Positions 15,855-25,427 of a stretch of 64,000 bases of DNA are shown here, one piece after another. The DNA lies in NCBI GenBank assembly GCA_964533575.1, contig CAZHMG010000006.1, positions 51 to 64,050 on the forward strand, read 5' to 3'. Under the pieces are notes generated by a model. The model was not told the origin of the DNA. It did no database searches and saw nothing but the letters and a program-made list of their open reading frames with translations. Made by a program: the position numbers and the translations under genes. Position 1 is the stretch's first letter. Every line of letters begins with the position of its first letter. Source of the DNA: an uncultured Thermoleophilia bacterium (GTDB lineage: Bacteria > Actinomycetota > Thermoleophilia > UBA2241).

Positions 15855-16529
15855 TCAGGAGGCGTCCGGAGCGATCGCCCCGCCTTCTCCCTCGCGCACA
15901 GCCCTCAACCTTTCCTTGAAGCCGGTCTCCTCCATGATCGTCTGGACCTCCTTCACTGCGTCCTCTGGGGGAAAGAGGGGCCCGAGTCCCAGTTCAGCCC
16001 GGATCTCGAGCAGGTGCTCCATATAGGAGGTCCAGTGTTCGCCCCATGCGTCGGCGATGGCCGGGAAGAGCAGGTGCGGATCCCCGCCCATGCCTTTCTC
16101 GTAGAATGTGGCACACCACTCTGCGAACGGCTTCACGTGCCTGTGCGCTTGGCCGCTCTCGACCTGAAGGCCGCGCAGGACCTGATTGATGACCGCCACG
16201 CTGTTGTGCCTGGGGCAACGACTCTGGCACGTGTAGCAGTAGTAGCAGAACCAGAGGGAATCCTCCGTCAGGAGGCTTTCGTCCCCGTCGAGGGCTCGTC
16301 GTGCGATCTCGCGGGGCGAGTAGTCGGTGAACCGCGCGGCGGGACAGCCGGACGTGCAAATGCCGCACTGGATGCAGCTGCGAAACCCTTCTCTGTGATC
16401 GTGCATCCGCGGGTCATCGAGTATTCGCTGAACGAGATCCGGATTGCGTCTGGGCGCCTGCGCGAAGCTGTTATCGGCGATGACAGCGTAGGGATTCACA
16501 GGCGGCGCAGACTGAGCCTCATCGGTCAT
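15855..16529 (-). CDS. hdrC: Heterodisulfide reductase subunit C-like (2x[4Fe-4S])
   Basis: CIQCGICTSGCP and WFCYYCYTCQSRCPR. GGAGG RBS, with ATG 16529 overlapping the upstream stop. Confidence 0.82.
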   Translation of the reverse strand: MTDEAQSAPPVNPYAVIADNSFAQAPRRNPDLVQRILDDPRMHDHREGFRSCIQCGICTSGCPAARFTDYSPREIARRALDGDESLLTEDSLWFCYYCYTCQSRCPRHNSVAVINQVLRGLQVESGQAHRHVKPFAEWCATFYEKGMGGDPHLLFPAIADAWGEHWTSYMEHLLEIRAELGLGPLFPPEDAVKEVQTIMEETGFKERLRAVREGEGGAIAPDAS

Positions 16530-17734
16530 TGCTGGTCCTCCGGAACGTTCGGGGCTGCCCGGAAGAACTCGGGCCAGAAGTGTACAGTCACCGGACAATT
16601 CAGCTCTCTGGCGGCGGAGCGGAGATTGTCGCAACAGAGAGAGCAGGTGCTCACGACGGGCGAATCATGCGTTGCGGCGAAGTCGAGGAGCATCGCGCTC
16701 GCTTTGGTCGCGCCGCGGTACATCCCGCCCAGCGCCCCGCAGCACCCGTTGTGGAGACTCGGATAGGTTCGACGGACCTTGACGCCGGCGAGGCGTGCAG
16801 CAGCGCCGAGTGCGGACAGGGACTGGTCCCGCCGCGCGAGACAGCCAACGTAGGGGACGAAGGAGGGCGACGCAGCCTGCAGGGCGATGCCGCTTCTCTG
16901 AGCCTGCGCGACCAAGGTATCCCACAGCGGGACCGTGGAGACGCCCGCCTTCTCGAGCGTGGCATCACAGGCTGGGCATGCCGTCTGTATGGTCTCCTCG
17001 CTATGGTACCTACTGCCGACGGCGCCCCGGCTGGGATGGCCGCAGCAACCGGCGTCCGCCAAATCCAGGCGGACGCCGAATCCCGCGGCCACATCGTGCA
17101 CCAGGCCGTGCAGCTCGCCGTCCTGCGGCAGAGAGCAGCCTGCGTAGAAGGGCAGGGAGACGACATCGCCGGCTGCCTGGTGTCTCGCAGGGGAGCCCAG
17201 TCGCGCCGCGTCATCCATCCCCGCTGTGGCTCCGGGCAGCTTGCGGGCGAGCGGCAGCTTCTGCCGTGCGAGTCGCATGCCCATGGCGATCATGCCCGGT
17301 TTGTCCTTTGGCACATGGCCATGGGCCATCATTCCGACACCCAGCCGCATCGAATCAATGCGCGGCTGTCGATGCAGTTGTGCAGCGGCAAGGTCCGCCG
17401 CCGATCGCTCAGGGCACCGGATGGTGGTTCCATGCTCGCGCTCGAGCTGCCGCAGGCGGCGAAGGATACCCGCCACGTCTATCTCCATGCGACAGACGTC
17501 GCTGCAGGCCCCGCATCCAGTGCAGCGCCAGAGGTCGTCGCTCTTCAGGACGGCCTCGATGTCGCCGGCCAAGATAAGCCGCACGAGCCTGCGAGGCCCG
17601 CGATACAGCTCGCGTCCGCTCGGGCAGGAGGACGTGCAAGTGCCGCACTGGTAGCAGGGATAACACTCCCGGGCCAGGCTCTTGAACTCGGCCTGCACTG
17701 CCGCCGGGTATGGCTGTCTACCGCTGGTCGCCAC
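16526..17734 (-). CDS. HdrC-like dicluster domain fused to two compact CCG domains (HdrC/B or HdrD-like)
   Basis: CYQCGTCTSSCP, WRCTGCGACSDVC, then FYAGC..GCCG..ACPAC and YVGC..GCCG..TCSLC. Confidence 0.78.
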   Translation of the reverse strand: MATSGRQPYPAAVQAEFKSLARECYPCYQCGTCTSSCPSGRELYRGPRRLVRLILAGDIEAVLKSDDLWRCTGCGACSDVCRMEIDVAGILRRLRQLEREHGTTIRCPERSAADLAAAQLHRQPRIDSMRLGVGMMAHGHVPKDKPGMIAMGMRLARQKLPLARKLPGATAGMDDAARLGSPARHQAAGDVVSLPFYAGCSLPQDGELHGLVHDVAAGFGVRLDLADAGCCGHPSRGAVGSRYHSEETIQTACPACDATLEKAGVSTVPLWDTLVAQAQRSGIALQAASPSFVPYVGCLARRDQSLSALGAAARLAGVKVRRTYPSLHNGCCGALGGMYRGATKASAMLLDFAATHDSPVVSTCSLCCDNLRSAARELNCPVTVHFWPEFFRAAPNVPEDQQ

Positions 17735-20165
17735 AGCCGTTCTCTCCCGTTCGGCCCAGGCCGCACGCCAGGTGGCCTGCAGGGGCGCCGATAAGATCCA
17801 TCTCGCGGTCGATCATCTCTCCGGAGGGGGCTCCTCCCGCTGCTCGGGCGTGGAACATCCGTATCTGCCGCCCGACGTTCTGGCGGTCCACAGCGCAGAG
17901 GTGCCAGAGTTCGAGCGGCAGCGGCGTTCCGGACGCCTGGAGGAGCTCGTCGGCCACGGCCAGCTGCTCTGCCGCGCTGACGTCGCCGCTGCGGTACTGG
18001 CAGCGGCCCGAAGCGCAGCCGGCAAGGAAGACGCCGGCGGCGCCCAAACGAGCTGCTTCAACGATGTGCAGGGCGCTCACGCGTCCGAGGCACGGCAGCT
18101 CGACGAGGCGCACGGACTCAGGGTAGCGATCGCGGCGCTGGCCGCTCAGCCCGATCGCCGCGCCTGCACACTCTCTGCAGTAGAAGCCCACGACCGGCTT
18201 CTCGACGCCCTCCATGACGAGCGCGAGCCGCCCGAAGAGAGAATCGTCACTGAGATTGTGGGTGATGGCCATCTCGGGACAGTTCGCGACACAGATGCCG
18301 CATGCCCTGCATGTCTCCGGGTCGATGACGGCCAGCTTCGCGTCGTCTTTGGCGGTGGCCGGACGTGGCACACCTGCCCGCCGATCGACCAGAGTGATCG
18401 CTCCGAATGGGCAGCGTGTGACGCAGGTGTCGCAGCCGATACAGCGCTCCGCCTCCACGGATGACGCGGCGGTGCCTCTTCGTCCGGCGGAGGTCAGGAA
18501 GTTGTGTATCTCTGTAGCGACCGCCGAGGCCTCTGTGTTGACCTCGATGAGGGCTTTCGGCCCTGCCGCGGACCCGCAGACGAAGATGCCCTCGCTGCTG
18601 GTCTCGGTCGCCCGGTTCTTGCGGTCAAGGATTTCGATGAACCCATCCGCGTCAAGCGCGACGCCGAGTGTCTGCGCGACTTCTGGGGCATCAGACGTCG
18701 GGACCATCCCAGTGCTCAGCACGACCAGATCGGGCCGAAGTACGCGTTTCCGCGCGGCTGTCACGTCCTCCACTTCGATGACAGGCCGTCCGCTTGCGTC
18801 GAACTGGACCTCCGGCGGGGTGCCGCGGAGGAACTCCACTCCCGCTTCGCGCGCCGCCAGGAACCAGTTCTCGTAGCCGACGCCCGCCGTCCTCATCTCC
18901 AGGTAACAGATGATGATCCTCATGTCGGGGAAGAGCGCGCGCAGCCGGATGGCGTGCTTGAGAGCGATCATGCAGCACAGGCGAGAACAATGGGGGAGGT
19001 GCCGGCGATCTCGCGATCCAGCGCACTGCACCATGACGAGTTCCTCGACTGGCGTGTGCCCGAGCGAAGCCTGTGCCGCCCAGTCATCCATGCGCTCGGC
19101 CAGCTCGACCTGCGTGATGACACCTTCATGGCCATAGCCCAGATACGAGAAGTATTCCTCAGGGGCGGGGCGACAGCCAGTTGCCGCAAGGATGGCTCCC
19201 GCGTTGACAGTCGCGCGTTCCGGAGACTGTGAGAAGTGGATGGCGTCGACCGGACAGGCGTCCGCGCAGGCGCCGCAGAAGGTGCATGTGTCCAGGTCGA
19301 TCGTGCGCAGGACGCGGCCGTCGTAGAACTCGCTGAAGATCGTCTTCGTGCCCGGTTCCGAGGAGTCCGCCGGGCAGACCGTCTCGCAGATGCCGCAGTT
19401 CACACACGCGTCCGTGACGATGTTGGGGAGGCGCTTGATGTTCACTTGGTAGTCTCCCGGATGACCGGTCACCGACTCGACAGTGGCACGGCGATGAATC
19501 CTCAGGTTCGGATGGTCAATAGCCACGTTGCGGTGAAAGCACTTCCGGGTTCCTGCCTGGGCATCGGTGGTTGGAAGACACTGGCCGCAGTCGTTCGTGG
19601 GGAAGACCGTGCCGATGCGGGCGGCTCGGCCGCCGAGGAAGGGCCGCCGCTCGACCAGCTCCACGAGATGACCCATCTGGGCGAGTTCGGCGGCGGCCTG
19701 CGTTCCGGCGACGCCGCCGCCGATGACGACGACCGTGTTCTCGCGCTTGGCGTGGCTCATCATGTTTGATTGAGGGGCGGGATACGCTATGGCGGAGGCG
19801 ATGATGCGTTGCGCCTTTTCCGTGACCGTCGGCACATCATCGCCGTGCACCCAGCTGCAGCCCTCGCGAATATCGGCTATCTCGAGGGCGAGGCCGCGCA
19901 CGAACAGCTTGTGGAGCCGCCGCTCGGCAAAATCCTCCGAGCAGCCCGCGAAGACGAGGCGGCTCGCCTCTCCGCCTTGTTCCATCAGCTCCAGCAGCTG
20001 CGCCTGCCCCTCGCGACTGCACCAGTGGCGCCCGCGGACGACGTCTGCCGTCAGGCTTGCCTCGGCCGTGACCCGGTCAAAGTCGATGTTGGCCATCGTC
20101 CCCGCGCATTCGCACAGGAGCAGGAGCGGCCGCTCGCGACCTGTCTCCGCCGGCGGGGTGATCAC
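17718..20165 (-). CDS. hdrA: Heterodisulfide reductase subunit A family protein
   Basis: LCECAG, VIGGGVAG, TVFPTNDCGQC, QCAGSRD..HCSRLCCMIALKH, and four CxxCxxCxxxCP motifs. The C-terminal MvhD-like segment has FYCREC..LVELPCLGRV. Confidence 0.9.
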   Translation of the reverse strand: MITPPAETGRERPLLLLCECAGTMANIDFDRVTAEASLTADVVRGRHWCSREGQAQLLELMEQGGEASRLVFAGCSEDFAERRLHKLFVRGLALEIADIREGCSWVHGDDVPTVTEKAQRIIASAIAYPAPQSNMMSHAKRENTVVVIGGGVAGTQAAAELAQMGHLVELVERRPFLGGRAARIGTVFPTNDCGQCLPTTDAQAGTRKCFHRNVAIDHPNLRIHRRATVESVTGHPGDYQVNIKRLPNIVTDACVNCGICETVCPADSSEPGTKTIFSEFYDGRVLRTIDLDTCTFCGACADACPVDAIHFSQSPERATVNAGAILAATGCRPAPEEYFSYLGYGHEGVITQVELAERMDDWAAQASLGHTPVEELVMVQCAGSRDRRHLPHCSRLCCMIALKHAIRLRALFPDMRIIICYLEMRTAGVGYENWFLAAREAGVEFLRGTPPEVQFDASGRPVIEVEDVTAARKRVLRPDLVVLSTGMVPTSDAPEVAQTLGVALDADGFIEILDRKNRATETSSEGIFVCGSAAGPKALIEVNTEASAVATEIHNFLTSAGRRGTAASSVEAERCIGCDTCVTRCPFGAITLVDRRAGVPRPATAKDDAKLAVIDPETCRACGICVANCPEMAITHNLSDDSLFGRLALVMEGVEKPVVGFYCRECAGAAIGLSGQRRDRYPESVRLVELPCLGRVSALHIVEAARLGAAGVFLAGCASGRCQYRSGDVSAAEQLAVADELLQASGTPLPLELWHLCAVDRQNVGRQIRMFHARAAGGAPSGEMIDREMDLIGAPAGHLACGLGRTGENGCGDQR

Positions 20166-20593
20166 AGGCCTGCGGCCTCAGGTGTCGCACGTGCGTCTTC
20201 TGTGCGCGGTGGACGTCCTTCGATCGCTTGTACCGGGCAGCCACGAACGCATGTGCCACAACCGAGGCACAGGTCGGGAGAGTAGACAATGGTTCGATAC
20301 ACCGTGACGCGCGGCGGAACCTGAACCGGCCCGTCCGGCGCCTGGCGCATGAGGCGCCGAAGCGCGTCGCCGAGAGCGCCACGGCGACTTTCCGGCGGCG
20401 CCTCGAGCAACTGCATCACGTCGAAGGTGTCCCCTCGTCTTGATGCGCCCGATGGACAGTTCACGGCACACCGGCCGCAGCCCACGCAGAGTTTCTCGTG
20501 CCGGACGATCTCACAGCCGATCCCAGAGGTACCCGATGCCAGGTGACCCGGCAGGCGGGACACGATGGCGCGTCCGCGGTCGTTCAGCGGCAC
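20162..20593 (-). CDS. 4Fe-4S dicluster ferredoxin-like protein
   Basis: CVGCGRCAVNCP and CLGCGTCVRGCP. Start placed at GTG 20593 after GGAGTGAGG. Confidence 0.75.
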   Translation of the reverse strand: MPLNDRGRAIVSRLPGHLASGTSGIGCEIVRHEKLCVGCGRCAVNCPSGASRRGDTFDVMQLLEAPPESRRGALGDALRRLMRQAPDGPVQVPPRVTVYRTIVYSPDLCLGCGTCVRGCPVQAIEGRPPRTEDARATPEAAGL

Positions 20594-21048
20594 GACTCGG
20601 CCCTCACTCCGCCGGCCGCGACTGCCACTTCGGGACGCATCGCGGCTGAGTCCGCCCGCTTCAGGGGCGGCAAAGCCTGGATGGTCCGGTCCATCTCCTT
20701 CACCGCCGCGACAAACCGTGGCGGCTCCCCGGCGCTCATGGTGAACATTCGGCATCGTTCCGGCTCGACCCCCACGCTGGTCAGCAGCCGCTGCACGAAC
20801 TTGACCCGGTCAATGGCGTTGAAGTTGCCTTCGCGGTAGTGGCACTGCCCCTCGAGACAGCCCGCCACCATGACGCCGTCCGCGTTCTCGGCCAGCGCCG
20901 CCAGAATATGCATTGGACTTACGCGCCCCGTGCAGGGCATGAGCACGAGGCGCACACTCGGGGGGAGAGAAGTCCGCGAGTTGGCGCTGGCATCGGCCGC
21001 CGCGTAGGCGCACTCGCGGCAGCAGAAGGCGACGATGGAGCGGTCCAT
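20584..21048 (-). CDS. mvhD: MvhD/FlpD-family [2Fe-2S] subunit
   Basis: IVAFCCRECAYAAAD, MPCTGRV, ADGVMVAGC..GQCHY..GN, MSAGE. TGATG overlap at 21048. Confidence 0.9.
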   Translation of the reverse strand: MDRSIVAFCCRECAYAAADASANSRTSLPPSVRLVLMPCTGRVSPMHILAALAENADGVMVAGCLEGQCHYREGNFNAIDRVKFVQRLLTSVGVEPERCRMFTMSAGEPPRFVAAVKEMDRTIQALPPLKRADSAAMRPEVAVAAGGVRAESCR

Positions 21049-24000
21049 CAGACGGTCGCTTCCGCCAGCACTTCGGCGTCGCTGAAGCCGCCCAGTTGCA
21101 TCGCGCCAGTCGGGCATTCAGCCGAACAGATGCCGCAGCCGCGACAGATGTTCGGATTGACGACGGCATGGCTCGCCGCCCCCGCCGTCAGCGTGATGGC
21201 CATCTGCGGACACGAGGTTTCACACACGCCGCAGCCGATGCACACGGTGGGATCGCTTGCCGCCACCTGCGCTGCGGTGAGGGTGAATCCCGATGAGAGC
21301 ATGGAGATGGCGCGTGCCGCCGCCGCTTTCGCTTGCGCGATCGATTCGGGAATCGTCTTCGGGCCCTGTGCCGTTCCGGCCACGAACATCCCGCTACGTT
21401 GCGTGTCGACCGGACGCAGCTTCGGGTGGTACTCGCGGATGAACCCCGCGGAGGCGGTCTGGAGTCCGGCGACGTGAGCGATATCGCGCGTGCCCTGCGA
21501 CGCCTCAAGGCCGGCCGAAAGTACGACCAGGTCGAACAGCTCCTCCTGCTTGCGACCGGTCATGGTGTCTTCGAGCCGCACGCGCAGGCTGCCGTCCGGC
21601 TCCTCCAGGATCTCGCCGACCCGGCCGCGCACGTAGCGCACCCCGCGCCCCTGCACGAGGCGGTAGTACTCCTCGTGGGCCTTGCCCGGGGCACGAAGAT
21701 CCGTGTAGGCGATGGTGACCTCGGCCTGCGGGTCGTGCTGGCGTATGAGTGATGCGTGGAGGGTGGCAAACAGACAGCAGACCGCAGAGCAGTGCTCATT
21801 GCCCGTGGCGGTGCAGTCGCGCGAGCCGACGCACTGGAGCATGAAGATCTTCTTGGGACGGGCTCCGTCTGAGGGGCGCACGAGCTCGCCTGCGGTCGGC
21901 CCCGAGGCCGCGAGCAGCCGTGCGACCTGGCTCTGTGTGAGCACATTGCGATAGCGGTCGTAGCCCAGCGGCTCCTTGCGGCTCGCATCGAACTCCTGGT
22001 GGCCCGTCGCCAGGATGACCGCGCCGACGGTGAGCTCCTCGCTCGTCTCCTGCTGCTCCCAATCGATTGCGCCGGACGGGCATGCTCTGACGCAGGAGTC
22101 GCACTCGCTGCAGATGGCGCAGTTGAGACATCGCTCGGCCTCCGCCACGGCTTGCTCGGCAGTGTAGCCCAGGCTCACCTCGCCCCAGTGATCACGACGG
22201 GCCAGGCCGTCGGCGAGGGCCATCGGTACACGCTGGCCGATCTCGATGGCCGCGAGCTCGGCGCCAGTCGGCCGTGCGGCTTCGCGCTCCACCGGCCAGA
22301 CCGGCAGGAGCCGCCCCCCGCGCAGATGATTATGAATGGCGGCGGCCCCCCGGCGTCCGGCGGCCACCGCTTCGATCGCCGTGTAGTAGCCGAGGGCGGC
22401 CGCATCGCCTCCGGCGAAGACGCCTTCGCGGCTCGTCATCATCGTCTCTCTGTCAATGAGGATCTGGCCGTTCTCCACGCGCAGCCCCTCACAGCCGTGG
22501 ACAAAGTCGTCCACGAGGGCCTGACCCACCGCGAAGATCACCATGTCGGCGGCGAGCTCGAAGTCGGAGCCCTCAACCGGGACGGGCTGGCGGCGGCCTG
22601 AGGCGTCAGGTCGTCCCAGCTCGCATCTCTGCAGCGCCAAGCCCGCAACCCGGTCGTCGCGCTTCGTGATCTCGAGGGGCTGCACGAGAAACTCCACTTT
22701 CAGCCCCTCCTCGCGGGCCTCGTGGACCTCGCCTGCGTTGGCCGGCATCTCAACTCTGCCGCGGCGATAGGTCAACGTGACGTTGGGCTCAAAGCCCGCC
22801 TGACGCTGCAGGCGGATGGCGCTGCGAGCCGCATCGAGCGCGACGTCGCCTCCGCCCACAACGACGACACACTCCCCGACCTCCGGAGTGGCTCCGAGGT
22901 TGAGCGCTCGCAGGAACTCCACCGCTCGCGTCACGCCGCGCAGGTCGTCGCCCGGCAGGCTGACGGAGGCGCTCTGCTGGAGACCCGTCGCAAGGTACGC
23001 GGCGCCGAAGCCGTCGTTGAGCAATCCGTCAATGGAGAAGTCCACGCCGGCGCGCTGGTTGAGCCTGAGTTCGACGCCGAGAGCGAGGATCTGGTCGATC
23101 TCGCGCTGGATGACTTGGTGCGGAAGACGATAATCGGGGATGCCGGTGCGCAGCATGCCTCCGGCTACCGGCTGCGCTTCGAAGACGGTGGCCCGATAGC
23201 CGAGGTGCGCGAGATCGCGGGCGCAGGTGAGGCCGGCGGGGCCGGCTCCGATGATGGCCACGCGTTCCGTGTGCACTGTCTGCGCCGGCTGGACCGGCAC
23301 CCCTGGCCCAACCGTGTCGGCGACGAACCGCTTGAGCGCGGCGATCGCGATCGGCGCGTCCACTGAGCCGCGAGCACAGGCTGTTTCACAGAGGTGGGTG
23401 CAGATGCGCCCGCAGACACTGCTGAACGGGTTGGGCTCGCTCGCGACCCGGTAGGCGTCCTCGAATCGTCCCGCCGCGACCAGGGCGACATACCCCTGGG
23501 CCGAGGTGTGGACGGCGCACGCGCTCTTGCAGGGACTCCAGCCCTTCTTTTCGATGGCGAACGTAGCGGGTACCGCGCCGGCGAACGGGCGCGAAACCGC
23601 CGTGCGAGTCGCAACGCCGAACTCGAAATCGCTCGGACACTCGACCGGACACACTGCCGCGCACTCGCCGCAGCCGACGCAGGCCTCGGTGACATAGCGC
23701 GGCTTGTGCCGCAGTCTGACGCGGAACTCGCCGGGGGGCCCCGAGATCTCGTCAACCTCGGTCAGCGTGTGCACGTGGATGCGCCCTTCAAGCGCTGTGC
23801 TGGTGAGGCGCGGCGCAAGTGAGCACATGGCGCAGTCTTCGGTTGGGAAGGTCTTGCTGAGGCGCGCCATGTATCCGCCGAGAGACTGCTCGCGCTCGAT
23901 GAGATGCACGTCGATGCCGCTCCCAGCCAGCTCCTCCGCAGCCGTCATACCGGCGATGCCGCCACCCACAACCATTGCCGTCCGATGGAGGAAGGTCCGG

Positions 24001-24404
24001 GTACGGGGCAGATCGTGCTGATGGCGGGCGCGGGCGACGGCGCCGGCGACGATCGTTCGTGCCTTCTCCTGGGCCGCCTCCGGTTCGTCCCGATGGACAA
24101 ATGAGCATCCCTCGCGGATGTTGGCGAACGACACTGCATTCTCACCGAGCTTCAGATCGCGCGCGATGCGTTCGAAAGTGGGTCCCTGAAAGCGCGGCGA
24201 GCAACTCGCGATGACCAGATGATCCAAGCCACGGTCCTCGACCGCGCCGGCGATGAGATCGTGACCCTCGGTTCCGCACATGAACTGGCTGGCCGCTACC
24301 GTGCTCACGCCCTCGAACTGGCGAATGTGCTCGGCGAGGGCGGGCAGATCGATGACGCCGCTGATGTTGCCCCCACACTGGCAGAGGAAGACCCCCGCCC
24401 TCAT
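21048..24404 (-). CDS. HdrL-type protein: HdrA with an inserted GltD/NfnB-like NAD(P)H oxidoreductase module
   Basis: HdrA N-terminus (GVFLCQCGGNI, VGGGIAG, SKTFPTEDCAMC). Insert: PCKSAC..NPFSSVCGRICTHLCETAC, IIGAGPAG, VGGGDVALD, YRR. Then HdrA C-terminus (QCVGSRD, CSAVCC, two terminal ferredoxin motifs). Confidence 0.88.
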   Translation of the reverse strand: MRAGVFLCQCGGNISGVIDLPALAEHIRQFEGVSTVAASQFMCGTEGHDLIAGAVEDRGLDHLVIASCSPRFQGPTFERIARDLKLGENAVSFANIREGCSFVHRDEPEAAQEKARTIVAGAVARARHQHDLPRTRTFLHRTAMVVGGGIAGMTAAEELAGSGIDVHLIEREQSLGGYMARLSKTFPTEDCAMCSLAPRLTSTALEGRIHVHTLTEVDEISGPPGEFRVRLRHKPRYVTEACVGCGECAAVCPVECPSDFEFGVATRTAVSRPFAGAVPATFAIEKKGWSPCKSACAVHTSAQGYVALVAAGRFEDAYRVASEPNPFSSVCGRICTHLCETACARGSVDAPIAIAALKRFVADTVGPGVPVQPAQTVHTERVAIIGAGPAGLTCARDLAHLGYRATVFEAQPVAGGMLRTGIPDYRLPHQVIQREIDQILALGVELRLNQRAGVDFSIDGLLNDGFGAAYLATGLQQSASVSLPGDDLRGVTRAVEFLRALNLGATPEVGECVVVVGGGDVALDAARSAIRLQRQAGFEPNVTLTYRRGRVEMPANAGEVHEAREEGLKVEFLVQPLEITKRDDRVAGLALQRCELGRPDASGRRQPVPVEGSDFELAADMVIFAVGQALVDDFVHGCEGLRVENGQILIDRETMMTSREGVFAGGDAAALGYYTAIEAVAAGRRGAAAIHNHLRGGRLLPVWPVEREAARPTGAELAAIEIGQRVPMALADGLARRDHWGEVSLGYTAEQAVAEAERCLNCAICSECDSCVRACPSGAIDWEQQETSEELTVGAVILATGHQEFDASRKEPLGYDRYRNVLTQSQVARLLAASGPTAGELVRPSDGARPKKIFMLQCVGSRDCTATGNEHCSAVCCLFATLHASLIRQHDPQAEVTIAYTDLRAPGKAHEEYYRLVQGRGVRYVRGRVGEILEEPDGSLRVRLEDTMTGRKQEELFDLVVLSAGLEASQGTRDIAHVAGLQTASAGFIREYHPKLRPVDTQRSGMFVAGTAQGPKTIPESIAQAKAAAARAISMLSSGFTLTAAQVAASDPTVCIGCGVCETSCPQMAITLTAGAASHAVVNPNICRGCGICSAECPTGAMQLGGFSDAEVLAEATV

Positions 24405-25366
24405 CGGGCGCCTGCCGTCCGCCGGGCTCCGATGCGCTCGAGGAAGGGCTCGACGTCCTGGGAATGCGATTGGACGCCGACGTCCTTCTCCGGGTCTGCC
24501 CCAAGAGCCAGGGCGAGAAGCTGCTGAACGTGAAGGTGAACGAACGGGTACTCCTCGCCACTCGAGGCGGAGATCATGTCATGGTAGCGGTCGAACTGAA
24601 CATGACAGTTCGGACACATGTGAACGAGCACGTCGACATTCTCCTGTGCGAGCCGGCGCAGCTTCTGCTGGGTCACCGCCATCGAGATGGACGGATTGAC
24701 GAAGCGGTTGCGGAAGCCGGCGCCACAGTGAAGGGTCTTTTCGTTGTAGTTGCCGGTGGGGGTGACCCCGGCAGGCATGAGCAGCTCCTCGGGCACCATG
24801 AAGTTCTCGTTGCTCCCCAGTGCGTCCTCCGGAAAGACCTTGCAGTAGTGGCAGGCGGGGTGCGTCGCGACCCTGACTCCGTCGAGCCGGCGACGGACGA
24901 GTTGCGGAATCGAGTCGTGGGCTCCCCAGAGGATGTCCAAGGTGTGCTTGTGCGCGACCTTGTCGGCGATCTCGTCGTCGTACTGCCGCCCGACCTTCTC
25001 CAGAACCTCGTTGGCGTCGTTGCGGTACTGGTCCACGTCGAGGATGGCTTCTGCCTTCTTGTTGATCGCATAACAGGTGGAGCAGAGGTAGCACATGGTG
25101 GGGTGCTCGTTCTCCACTGCGACGCATGCGTTGCGGGCGGCAAGTGCCACGGTCGTCTCGATGGGCATGAGATCAGAGTAGTACCCGAGACCGGTGCAGC
25201 ACGTCTGCTCCGGATGAATCGTGAATTCGATGTCAAAGCGCTCAAAGAGCCATTTGGTGGCAGCTTCGACTCCAGGATACTCAGCGGAAACGAGGCAACT
25301 GCGGAAGAGGAGGACACCGCCGTCCGTGCGAGGGACGTCGGGAGTCTTGCGGTAACGTTTGGTCAT
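24401..25366 (-). CDS. hdrB: Heterodisulfide reductase subunit B (two CCG domains)
   Basis: FRSC..QTCCTG..LCSTC and HPACH..LHCGAG..MCPNCHVQFD, QLLALALG. Confidence 0.88.
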   Translation of the reverse strand: MTKRYRKTPDVPRTDGGVLLFRSCLVSAEYPGVEAATKWLFERFDIEFTIHPEQTCCTGLGYYSDLMPIETTVALAARNACVAVENEHPTMCYLCSTCYAINKKAEAILDVDQYRNDANEVLEKVGRQYDDEIADKVAHKHTLDILWGAHDSIPQLVRRRLDGVRVATHPACHYCKVFPEDALGSNENFMVPEELLMPAGVTPTGNYNEKTLHCGAGFRNRFVNPSISMAVTQQKLRRLAQENVDVLVHMCPNCHVQFDRYHDMISASSGEEYPFVHLHVQQLLALALGADPEKDVGVQSHSQDVEPFLERIGARRTAGAR

Positions 25367-25398: not shown

Positions 25399-25427
25399 AT
25401 TATCCATAAGGTAAGCTACTTCCGCAA
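25399..25427 (-). promoter_or_regulatory. Putative sigma70/sigmaA promoter of the hdr operon
   Basis: Minus strand TTGCGG-17 nt-GATAAT, about 35 nt upstream of the hdrB ATG. Confidence 0.5.

Follow-up and report, generated by a model that had tools for sequence, protein, structure and literature searches.

Electron bifurcation by HdrA, the flavoprotein of heterodisulfide reductase (Hdr), is well understood in methanogens only, and the related HdrL-type enzymes have stayed uncharacterised although they have been listed since 2009. In that year the name HdrL was given in Desulfobacterium autotrophicum (HdrL1-3) to a fusion of HdrA with glutamate synthase, followed by mvhD, and NADH was proposed as the donor (PMC2702500). 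In Syntrophobacter fumaroxidans the six-gene cluster Sfum_0819-0824 encodes HdrL, MvhD, an Fe-S protein and HdrABC with no MvhA; proteomes found it abundant with sulfate, and it was proposed to confurcate, perhaps onto DsrC (PMC5947623). Genome predictions for ANME-1 archaea include HdrA9-11, in which an NfnB-like insertion of about 500 amino acids (aa) lies in the inserted ferredoxin domain; the same work proposed, with regard to ANME Hdr clusters other than the HdrA-NfnB genes, that a heterodimer of HdrA paralogues imposes asymmetry (PMC9012536). Two better characterised relatives are HdrA2B2C2 of Methanosarcina acetivorans, which bifurcates the electrons of F420H2 to ferredoxin and heterodisulfide and whose HdrA2 alone binds F420 (Km 6.4 uM; NAD is no substitute) (PMC5296606), and BamE, a fused HdrA pseudo-dimer with one Lys-bearing, bifurcating flavin (FAD) and one non-bifurcating FAD (10.64898/2026.04.10.717634). 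Here we describe a seven-gene Hdr operon with two HdrA paralogues in DNA of an uncultured Thermoleophilia bacterium. The stretch analysed, hereafter the window, is 64,000 nt long (GCA_964533575.1, CAZHMG010000006.1 positions 51-64,050, forward strand) and has a G+C content of 66%.

The general kind, that of HdrL-type gene sets, is already known from genomes and the operon is not a new category. The type of arrangement that the original prediction describes has been published (PMC2702500, PMC5947623, PMC9012536); no such system has been characterised biochemically with a known partner, and to that extent the prediction is not refuted. None of the HdrL or HdrA-NfnB systems of D. autotrophicum, S. 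fumaroxidans and ANME-1 has been purified in the literature.

The seven open reading frames (ORFs; Table 1), numbered G1 to G7 in the direction of transcription, run from 25366 to 15855 on the minus strand and have coding-type G+C at third codon positions (GC3). By their layout and recurrence they are one conserved operon. Overlaps of 1-17 nt are found at all six neighbouring pairs, the junctions from G1 to G7 being ATGA, TGATG, a 10-nt overlap, GTGA, a 17-nt overlap and ATGA; the start of G4 is the GTG at 20593, the one that suits the neighbouring genes. The same order is present in five loci from metagenome-assembled genomes (MAGs) of Thermoleophilia/Gaiellaceae type (L001-L005), whose HdrL proteins are 80% (L001 and L002), 70% (L004), 67% (L005) and 66% (L003) identical to G2, and in a sixth locus (L084) to which we return below. 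A homologue of G4 occupies the equivalent place in all six. Such recurrence argues that the arrangement has not arisen by chance. HdrB and HdrC are obligate partners and are encoded by the first and the last gene, which argues for a single assembly. The gene list and coordinates of the original prediction agree with the ORFs and with the Pfam and NCBIfam domain content; the tight coupling that it described is found at every junction, and the gene order is recovered in the six related loci.

Table 1. The seven genes of the Hdr operon and the element preceding them (positions in the window).
Feature	Coordinates	Strand	Basis or details
G1, HdrB, 321 aa, two CCG domains	24401..25366	-	Pfam CCG E 1.1e-17
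G2, "HdrL", 1118 aa, HdrA2-type HdrA split by a GltD/StnC/NfnB-like module	21048..24404	-	Pfam, NCBIfam and PDB matches
G3, MvhD, [2Fe-2S] adaptor, 154 aa	20584..21048	-	Pfam FlpD E 1e-43; NCBIfam VhuD 128 bits
G4, 2x[4Fe-4S] ferredoxin, 143 aa, GTG start	20162..20593	-	two CxxCxxCxxxCP motifs; Fer4 families E ~1e-13
G5, HdrA-MvhD fusion, 815 aa, HdrA2-like	17718..20165	-	NCBIfam HdrA2; FlpD aa 658-771 E 1.6e-22
G6, HdrC-like 2x[4Fe-4S] domain plus two short complete 5-Cys CCG motifs, 402 aa	16526..17734	-	HdrC matches; AlphaFold2 (AF2) model
G7, HdrC, 224 aa, expected partner of G1	15855..16529	-	NCBIfam hdrC_Methbact 208 bits, HdrC 156 bits
Promoter-like element 5' of hdrB	25399..25427	-	TTGCGG, 17 nt, GATAAT; ATG ~32 nt further on

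Both G2 and G5 have the NCBIfam HdrA2 model as their best match; G5 scores 472 bits against it (NF040770) over aa 17-771. Each is a full-length HdrA possessing the FAD fold, the N-terminal cluster domain, and the inserted and C-terminal ferredoxin domains. In G5 the match to HdrA 5odc_A (291 bits) covers aa 16-636 and is followed by matches to MvhD chains at aa 655-760. In G2 the HdrA comes in two stretches, aa 1-287 and ~765-1115, which align with HdrA 9sfi_A over aa 2-287 and 765-1113 (574 bits) and with 5odc_A at 536 bits.

A cryo-electron microscopy preprint describes a conserved Lys lying 3.4 A from N5 of Hdr-type bifurcating flavins, and a second HdrA-like unit of BamE that is without this Lys and is non-bifurcating (10.64898/2026.04.10.717634). 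At the corresponding column G5 has Lys (CCMIALK) and G2 has Leu (CCLFATL). In the methanogen structure the equivalent residue is presumably Lys409, and Wagner et al. are said to have dealt in 2017 with the role of the Lys beside the flavin N5 in methanogen Hdr. All other HdrA proteins compared, those of other HdrL lineages included, have Lys in this column, except for one Arg in the G5 homologue of L084. Leu occurs in every Thermoleophilia G2 sequence, including one that has no insert, and was seen only in this clade; from the alignment, the change from Lys to Leu is clade-specific and independent of the insert. Judged by this residue, the operon pairs one HdrA that has the bifurcation hallmark with one that does not. 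A second position nearby, Glu356 of 5odc, is Ala throughout the HdrA2 type, Methanosarcina included, and is therefore not informative.

The two HdrA proteins might each form a complex of their own with its own substrate, an NADPH-linked (HdrL-MvhD-HdrBC)2 and an (HdrA-MvhD-G6)2 with ferredoxin G4. Canonical Hdr is built on an HdrA homodimer (PDB 5odc family); the operon has two MvhD domains and two CCG modules, that is, one for each HdrA; and three Desulfobacterota loci (L008, L010 and L062), with the order HdrL-MvhD-gap-HdrA-like-HdrC-HdrB, carry an HdrL-MvhD block and an HdrA-HdrC-HdrB block. We nevertheless hold two such complexes to be unlikely, because HdrB and its partner HdrC are placed at opposite ends of the operon and the seven overlapping genes have been inherited together, which holds for the insert-less L084 as well. 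Moreover, an HdrL without the N5 Lys would make a homodimer without a canonical bifurcation site, and BamE provides a precedent for an asymmetric pair.

The two HdrA stretches of G2 are separated by a GltD/NfnB-like module (aa ~289-760), which interrupts the inserted ferredoxin domain and is predicted to contain 2x[4Fe-4S], FAD and an NADP(H) site. It matches PRK12771 at 483 bits. Of the PDB chains, 9bov_A scores 389 bits, NfnA of the Bfu-type NfnABC (9n5u_A) 358, StnC (8oh5_C) 318, NfnB of NfnAB (4ylf_B) 291 and GltD (6s6s_G) 195. The Rossmann motifs and a YRR...EMPA segment are kept in the insert and in these PDB matches; in the YRR motif the paired Arg contacts the 2'-phosphate. Since the insert is nearest to the GltD-like chains of StnC and NfnA, which we take to be NADP(H)-binding modules, and since it keeps the YRR motif, NADPH is more likely to be its cofactor than NADH. 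Membership of the NfnAB transhydrogenases was considered and rejected: an NfnA/PyrK-like partner gene was found neither in the operon nor in the window, and the insert scores the StnC/NfnA modules above NfnB.

The module is not present in every operon of this type. A 642-aa HdrA (P0244), 69% identical to the flanks of G2, has an intact inserted ferredoxin domain and no GltD module; its cluster comprises four members of 642-653 aa from independent sources. L084 (4638-12616), which comes from the same metagenome sample as L003, contains the seven genes in the same order with an insert-less first HdrA of 653 aa that keeps CCLFATL, the Lys being replaced by Leu. Its G1, G6 and G7 are broken into pieces, probably by frameshifts of the assembly. 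L084 thus has a two-HdrA core with no pyridine-nucleotide site, which argues that the NADP(H) module is an add-on and not the defining input; such a core needs another donor or acceptor. The label "NAD(P)H-linked" of the original prediction accordingly fits G2, in which the module is present, and is weakened as a defining property of the system. The bifurcating or confurcating machine that was predicted has kept its soluble Hdr-type flavin and Fe-S parts with a pyridine-nucleotide site of their own, but it is of a kind already published and its module is an accessory.

The origin of the two HdrA proteins was examined in two trees, one of the C-terminal half of the HdrA flavin domain (157 rows, FastTree) and one of the whole HdrA backbone with the insert removed (37 rows and 644 columns, IQ-TREE with the posterior mean site frequency model, PMSF). 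In both, the Thermoleophilia G2 and G5 clades group with the HdrA-MvhD fusions of Methanosarcina and another euryarchaeon (approximate likelihood-ratio test, SH-aLRT, 97) and stand apart from the collinear HdrL proteins of Desulfobacterota, Chloroflexia and Bathyarchaeia. The two HdrA paralogues pointed out in the original prediction therefore both fall with the Methanosarcina HdrA2 type. Within the backbone tree the insert-less HdrA of L084 is sister to the insert-bearing forms (support 88). Joining the two HdrL groups by constraint costs 40 log-likelihood units (approximately unbiased, AU, test, p = 0.0035), for a group named post hoc; the AU test on insert-bearing rows only was uninformative, the insert-less sequences nesting inside both groups. 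The possibility that G2 is an orthologue of the Desulfobacterium HdrL was rejected on the backbone tree and the AU test.

The insert has a different affinity. In a FastTree of the insert only, that of Thermoleophilia is sister to the inserts of Anaerolineae HdrL proteins of ~1500 aa (SH-like support 95), from which we surmise that the NADP(H) module is probably a secondary, lateral acquisition. The remainder agrees with the backbone: of the proteins compared, G1 and G7 come nearest to the HdrB and HdrC encoded beside the Methanosarcina HdrA2 (L071), with 39% and 42% identity, respectively. On sequence relationship, then, the operon is built on the HdrA2B2C2 type as regards both HdrA proteins, HdrB and HdrC.

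Many Actinobacteria make F420, and F420 may be considered as the primary two-electron donor or acceptor at the flavin of G5, with the NADP(H) module as an added outlet; the enzyme would then be a redox balancer among F420H2, NADP(H), ferredoxin and a disulfide. G5, G1 and G7 are of the HdrA2B2C2 type, HdrA2 binds F420 (PMC5296606), and the insert-less L084 requires a donor other than NAD(P)H. We rate this proposal as quite unlikely. The window showed no gene for making F420 and none for an F420-dependent protein, and G5, on a very long branch, shares only ~31% identity with archaeal HdrA2, whose F420 site is as yet unmapped.

The CCG modules are found in G1 and G6. G1 matches HdrB 5odc_B at 148 bits and the NCBIfam HdrB model (NF041780) at 345 bits, which is under the cut-off of 450. 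Its first CCG motif is complete; in the second, Cys is replaced by His (HCG), and this is invariant in the six operons compared (window and L001-L005). The Methanosarcina locus has TCG at this place, and the remaining HdrB proteins compared have CCG, with a single exception. Recombinant HdrB2 of M. acetivorans contained ~5 Fe and still reduced CoMS-SCoB, so degeneracy of this kind is compatible with activity. G7, the HdrC, carries two [4Fe-4S] motifs. G6 is conserved (61-73% identity among relatives), and its eight dicluster Cys and both 5-Cys CCG motifs (18 Cys) are invariant in 21 relatives (alignment A1), though Pfam does not detect the CCG domains. The best Foldseek matches of its AF2 model (pLDDT confidence 76.6) are M. 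smegmatis EtfD (9ojn) and LutA (9a6l_A), followed by HdrC chains. The invariance of the Cys residues together with these fold matches indicates that G6, as modelled, is a soluble HdrD-like fusion of HdrC and CCG domains without a membrane part. The two CCG modules of the original prediction are both present and both under purifying selection.

These modules need not act on a thiol. G6, and perhaps G1/G7, could couple to a quinone, an electron-transfer flavoprotein (ETF), an organic acid, or methylene-tetrahydrofolate by way of an unlinked MetF, much as CCG proteins do in EtfD, LutA, GlpC, GlcF and SdhE. The structural matches of G6 to EtfD and LutA rank above HdrB, its CCG domains being barely detected by Pfam, and the window encodes an MttB-family methyltransferase, cobamide genes and a 2-oxoacid:ferredoxin oxidoreductase. 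A non-thiol partner is in our opinion very unlikely all the same, given that G1 and G7 are close to bona fide HdrB2C2, which reduces CoMS-SCoB, that G6 has no membrane part, and that none of the six loci has metF, metV, etf or lut beside the operon.

Considered broadly, we give roughly even chances to the operon encoding a soluble, oxygen-sensitive Hdr-type Fe-S flavoprotein complex that links NADP(H), ferredoxin and one or two thiol/disulfide-type substrates at CCG sites by bifurcation or confurcation. In the scheme that we infer, which covers the HdrA pairing, the electron route, the preference for NADPH and the direction, G2 and G5 would form an asymmetric HdrA heterodimer. NADPH would be oxidised at the GltD/StnC-like FAD of the G2 insert, and single electrons would pass through the two [4Fe-4S] clusters of the insert, the split ferredoxin domain of G2 and an MvhD [2Fe-2S] cluster (G3 or the G5 tail) to the FAD of G5. 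This FAD, for which the N5 Lys is kept, would be the bifurcating flavin. Its high-potential electron would travel via HdrC (G7) to the non-cubane cluster site of HdrB (G1) and/or the HdrD-like G6, and thence to a disulfide-type substrate; the low-potential electron would exit by the inserted ferredoxin domain of G5, with G4 or a free ferredoxin as its acceptor. The FAD of G2, with Leu for Lys, may be a non-bifurcating or structural flavin. The reaction may be reversible, and the 2-oxoacid:ferredoxin oxidoreductase of the window, by reducing ferredoxin, may provide a physiological link.

The most specific form of this proposal, which we put forward tentatively and consider doubtful when taken as a whole, is an asymmetric "double Hdr" derived from the archaeal HdrA2B2C2 type, with an NADPH module captured from a Chloroflexota HdrL and with two CCG sites. 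It would move electrons from NADPH (possibly F420H2) to low-potential ferredoxin, driven by an actinobacterial thiol/disulfide couple other than CoM/CoB or DsrC, for example one that is mycothiol-type or protein-bound. Two analogies favour the broader scheme of an asymmetric complex: in BamE exactly such a pair of Lys-bearing and Lys-less FADs has been described, and in S. fumaroxidans the genes of the HdrABC/HdrL cluster are expressed together (PMC5947623). Several points weigh against this scheme. The importance attached to the N5 Lys comes from the structures of other enzymes. The heterodimer is itself deduced, and two separate homodimeric complexes are the alternative to it. The insert-less L084 means that a donor other than NAD(P)H may be primary, and the second CCG motif of HdrB is degenerate. 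Finally, the sequencing-run search found the operon in DNA runs only, which come from metagenomes of rock, soil, groundwater and wastewater, and in no RNA run.

HdrL of this type forms more than 100 clusters at 90% identity, which are 64-87% identical and of equal length, and those with a named source are from Thermoleophilia, Gaiellaceae or Actinobacteria MAGs. In a search of 1.8 billion representatives at 50% identity, all Thermoleophilia HdrL proteins fall together in a single cluster. Identity drops to 45% or less for the full-length HdrL-type proteins that come next, which belong to Thorarchaeota, Heimdallarchaeota, Dehalogenimonas, Caldisericota and marine Pseudomonadales. A survey with one genome for each species yielded 80 loci in many phyla, with the full order of G1 to G7 only in loci of Actinomycetota.

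Two other forms of HdrL were encountered among these loci. In L042, L045 and L046 (Gaiellales/Thermoleophilia/Actinomycetota) there is a second, unrelated type with 36-39% identity, in which the gene for an insert-bearing protein of ~900-940 aa, lacking the N-terminal domain, precedes a second HdrA-like gene; an HdrC-like gene lies downstream, and L042 and L046 have mvhD upstream. Two kinds of HdrL system may thus coexist in some Thermoleophilia. L013, L014, L016-L030 and others (Desulfobacterota, Chloroflexota, Acidobacteriota and Bacillota) encode HdrL proteins of ~1500 aa, in which a second, partial HdrA unit is joined to an insert-bearing flavin domain that lacks the N-terminal domain; the layout, a fused pseudo-dimer, recalls BamE.

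Upstream of the operon a 660-nt spacer precedes a divergent HEAT-repeat gene, and downstream are genes for a BrkB/YihY membrane protein and NadA. Elsewhere in the window are RecQ, RlmL, Btu-like uptake genes and methionine-biosynthesis genes. Between 36029 and 42988, at a distance of 11-18 kb from the operon, lie an MttB-family methyltransferase, MarR, a two-subunit 2-oxoacid:ferredoxin oxidoreductase and cobamide-completion genes, which indicates that the organism uses ferredoxin and corrinoid-dependent methyl transfer. Among the 47 window ORFs of at least ~100 aa there is no member of the hydrogenase, Fdh, Flx, MetF/MetV, CODH/ACS or Dsr/DsrC families, and no MvhAG-, Fdh- or Flx-like genes are present in the flanks of the six related loci; the absence of a hydrogenase, Fdh or Flx partner stated in the original prediction is borne out to this extent (64-kb window and six loci). 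The flanking genes vary among the loci, so that no partner is kept by adjacency. Nothing in the window points to CoM/CoB metabolism.

Two features of single or few relatives were observed beside the operon. In L003 (18833-21490) it is followed by convergent genes for ComA (phosphosulfolactate synthase, PF02679), a PF04060 Fe-S protein and a class V aminotransferase; this ComA-type cluster occurs in that one locus and not in the window, and a link to a sulfonate or thiol cofactor is conceivable. Just 5' of hdrB in L001 (6983-8383) and L003 (4814-6211 and 6400-7755) are genes for homologous proteins of 451-466 aa without a Pfam match. This protein is present in three relatives, is duplicated in L003 beside a radical SAM gene, and has no homologue in the window.

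A block ATTTG...TAT.GATAAT is conserved 5' of hdrB in five loci (alignment A3), and we infer from its TTGnnn-17-GATAAT form that it may serve as the operon promoter. A consensus promoter scan called none and likewise missed this block. In L003-L005 the -10 region overlaps the palindrome TATCGATA. Terminator-like sites within the operon are below chance expectation. A Rex-box search of the region upstream of hdrB found no site, and an Rfam scan of 13-27 kb gave no match.

If the double-Hdr proposal is true, soil and rock Actinobacteria would have a bifurcation route to ferredoxin; no hydrogenase or Rnf is evident in the window. The operon is compact, highly conserved and widespread in uncultured Actinobacteria of soil, groundwater and rock. 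The cultured Thermoleophilia are aerobes, and the identity of the substrate would reveal how low-potential electrons are handled in abundant, supposedly aerobic lineages. The locus also amounts to a natural experiment on bifurcating HdrA flavins, with the N5 Lys in one paralogue only and with sister operons that have and do not have the NADPH module. It offers a test of the asymmetric-HdrA principle seen in class II benzoyl-CoA reductase.

Compared with MvhAGD-HdrABC (5ODC), the operon has the same subunit families and cofactor motifs. It differs in that no MvhA/MvhG was seen in the window, NADP(H) would take the place of H2, the HdrA pair would be a heterodimer and not a homodimer, and HdrB has HCG. 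Membership of the FlxABCD-HdrABC systems was rejected, as no Flx-like genes are present in the window or the related loci. The same applies to sHdr: both HdrA proteins are full-length, as against ~350 aa for sHdrA, 6tjr_A matches a part of each, and the gene order differs from the hdrC1B1A-hyp-hdrC2B2 of sHdr; a gene for the lipoate-binding protein (lbpA) was not found among the window ORFs scanned.

The HdrL proteins of Desulfobacterota, too, carry the GltD-like insert in the inserted ferredoxin domain, at the same position, and the HdrABC/HdrL clusters likewise combine mvhD, a gene for an Fe-S protein and a second hdrA next to hdrC/hdrB, with no hydrogenase catalytic subunit; NAD(P)H confurcation or bifurcation has been proposed for them as well. 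Here, however, the backbone is non-orthologous and at most 45% identical, the gene order is different, and the N5 Lys that the Desulfobacterota keep is lost. A fusion of the G6 type is not found in their sampled loci, and DsrC, the substrate proposed there, is not evident in the window. The ANME-1 HdrA-NfnB proteins also have their inserted ferredoxin domain interrupted by an NfnB-like insertion, but they are archaeal and CoM-SH/CoB-SH chemistry has been proposed for them; the loci that we compared included no ANME-1 sequence.

With class II benzoyl-CoA reductase, BamDEF(GHI), the operon shares an asymmetric HdrA pair (here predicted), an MvhD-like adaptor (BamF), an HdrB/C-fusion output (BamD, cf. 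G6) and a dedicated pyridine-nucleotide input module. Bam differs in having its two HdrA units fused, with permuted domains, in an NADH module that resembles HydABC and not GltD, and in its low-potential output, a tungsten ring reductase that is absent from our locus. HdrA2B2C2 of Methanosarcina resembles it in the HdrA-MvhD fusion seen in G5 and in an HdrB whose second CCG pair has its first Cys replaced (HCG here, TCG there). To this type the operon adds a free MvhD, a ferredoxin and an HdrD-like protein; it has two HdrA paralogues, one of which has an NADP(H) module and has lost the N5 Lys, and its host is an actinobacterium. Set beside all of these systems, what looks new is the HdrA2B2C2-type backbone with an apparently lateral NADPH module, the sister operon without the insert, and a change from Lys to Leu confined to this clade.

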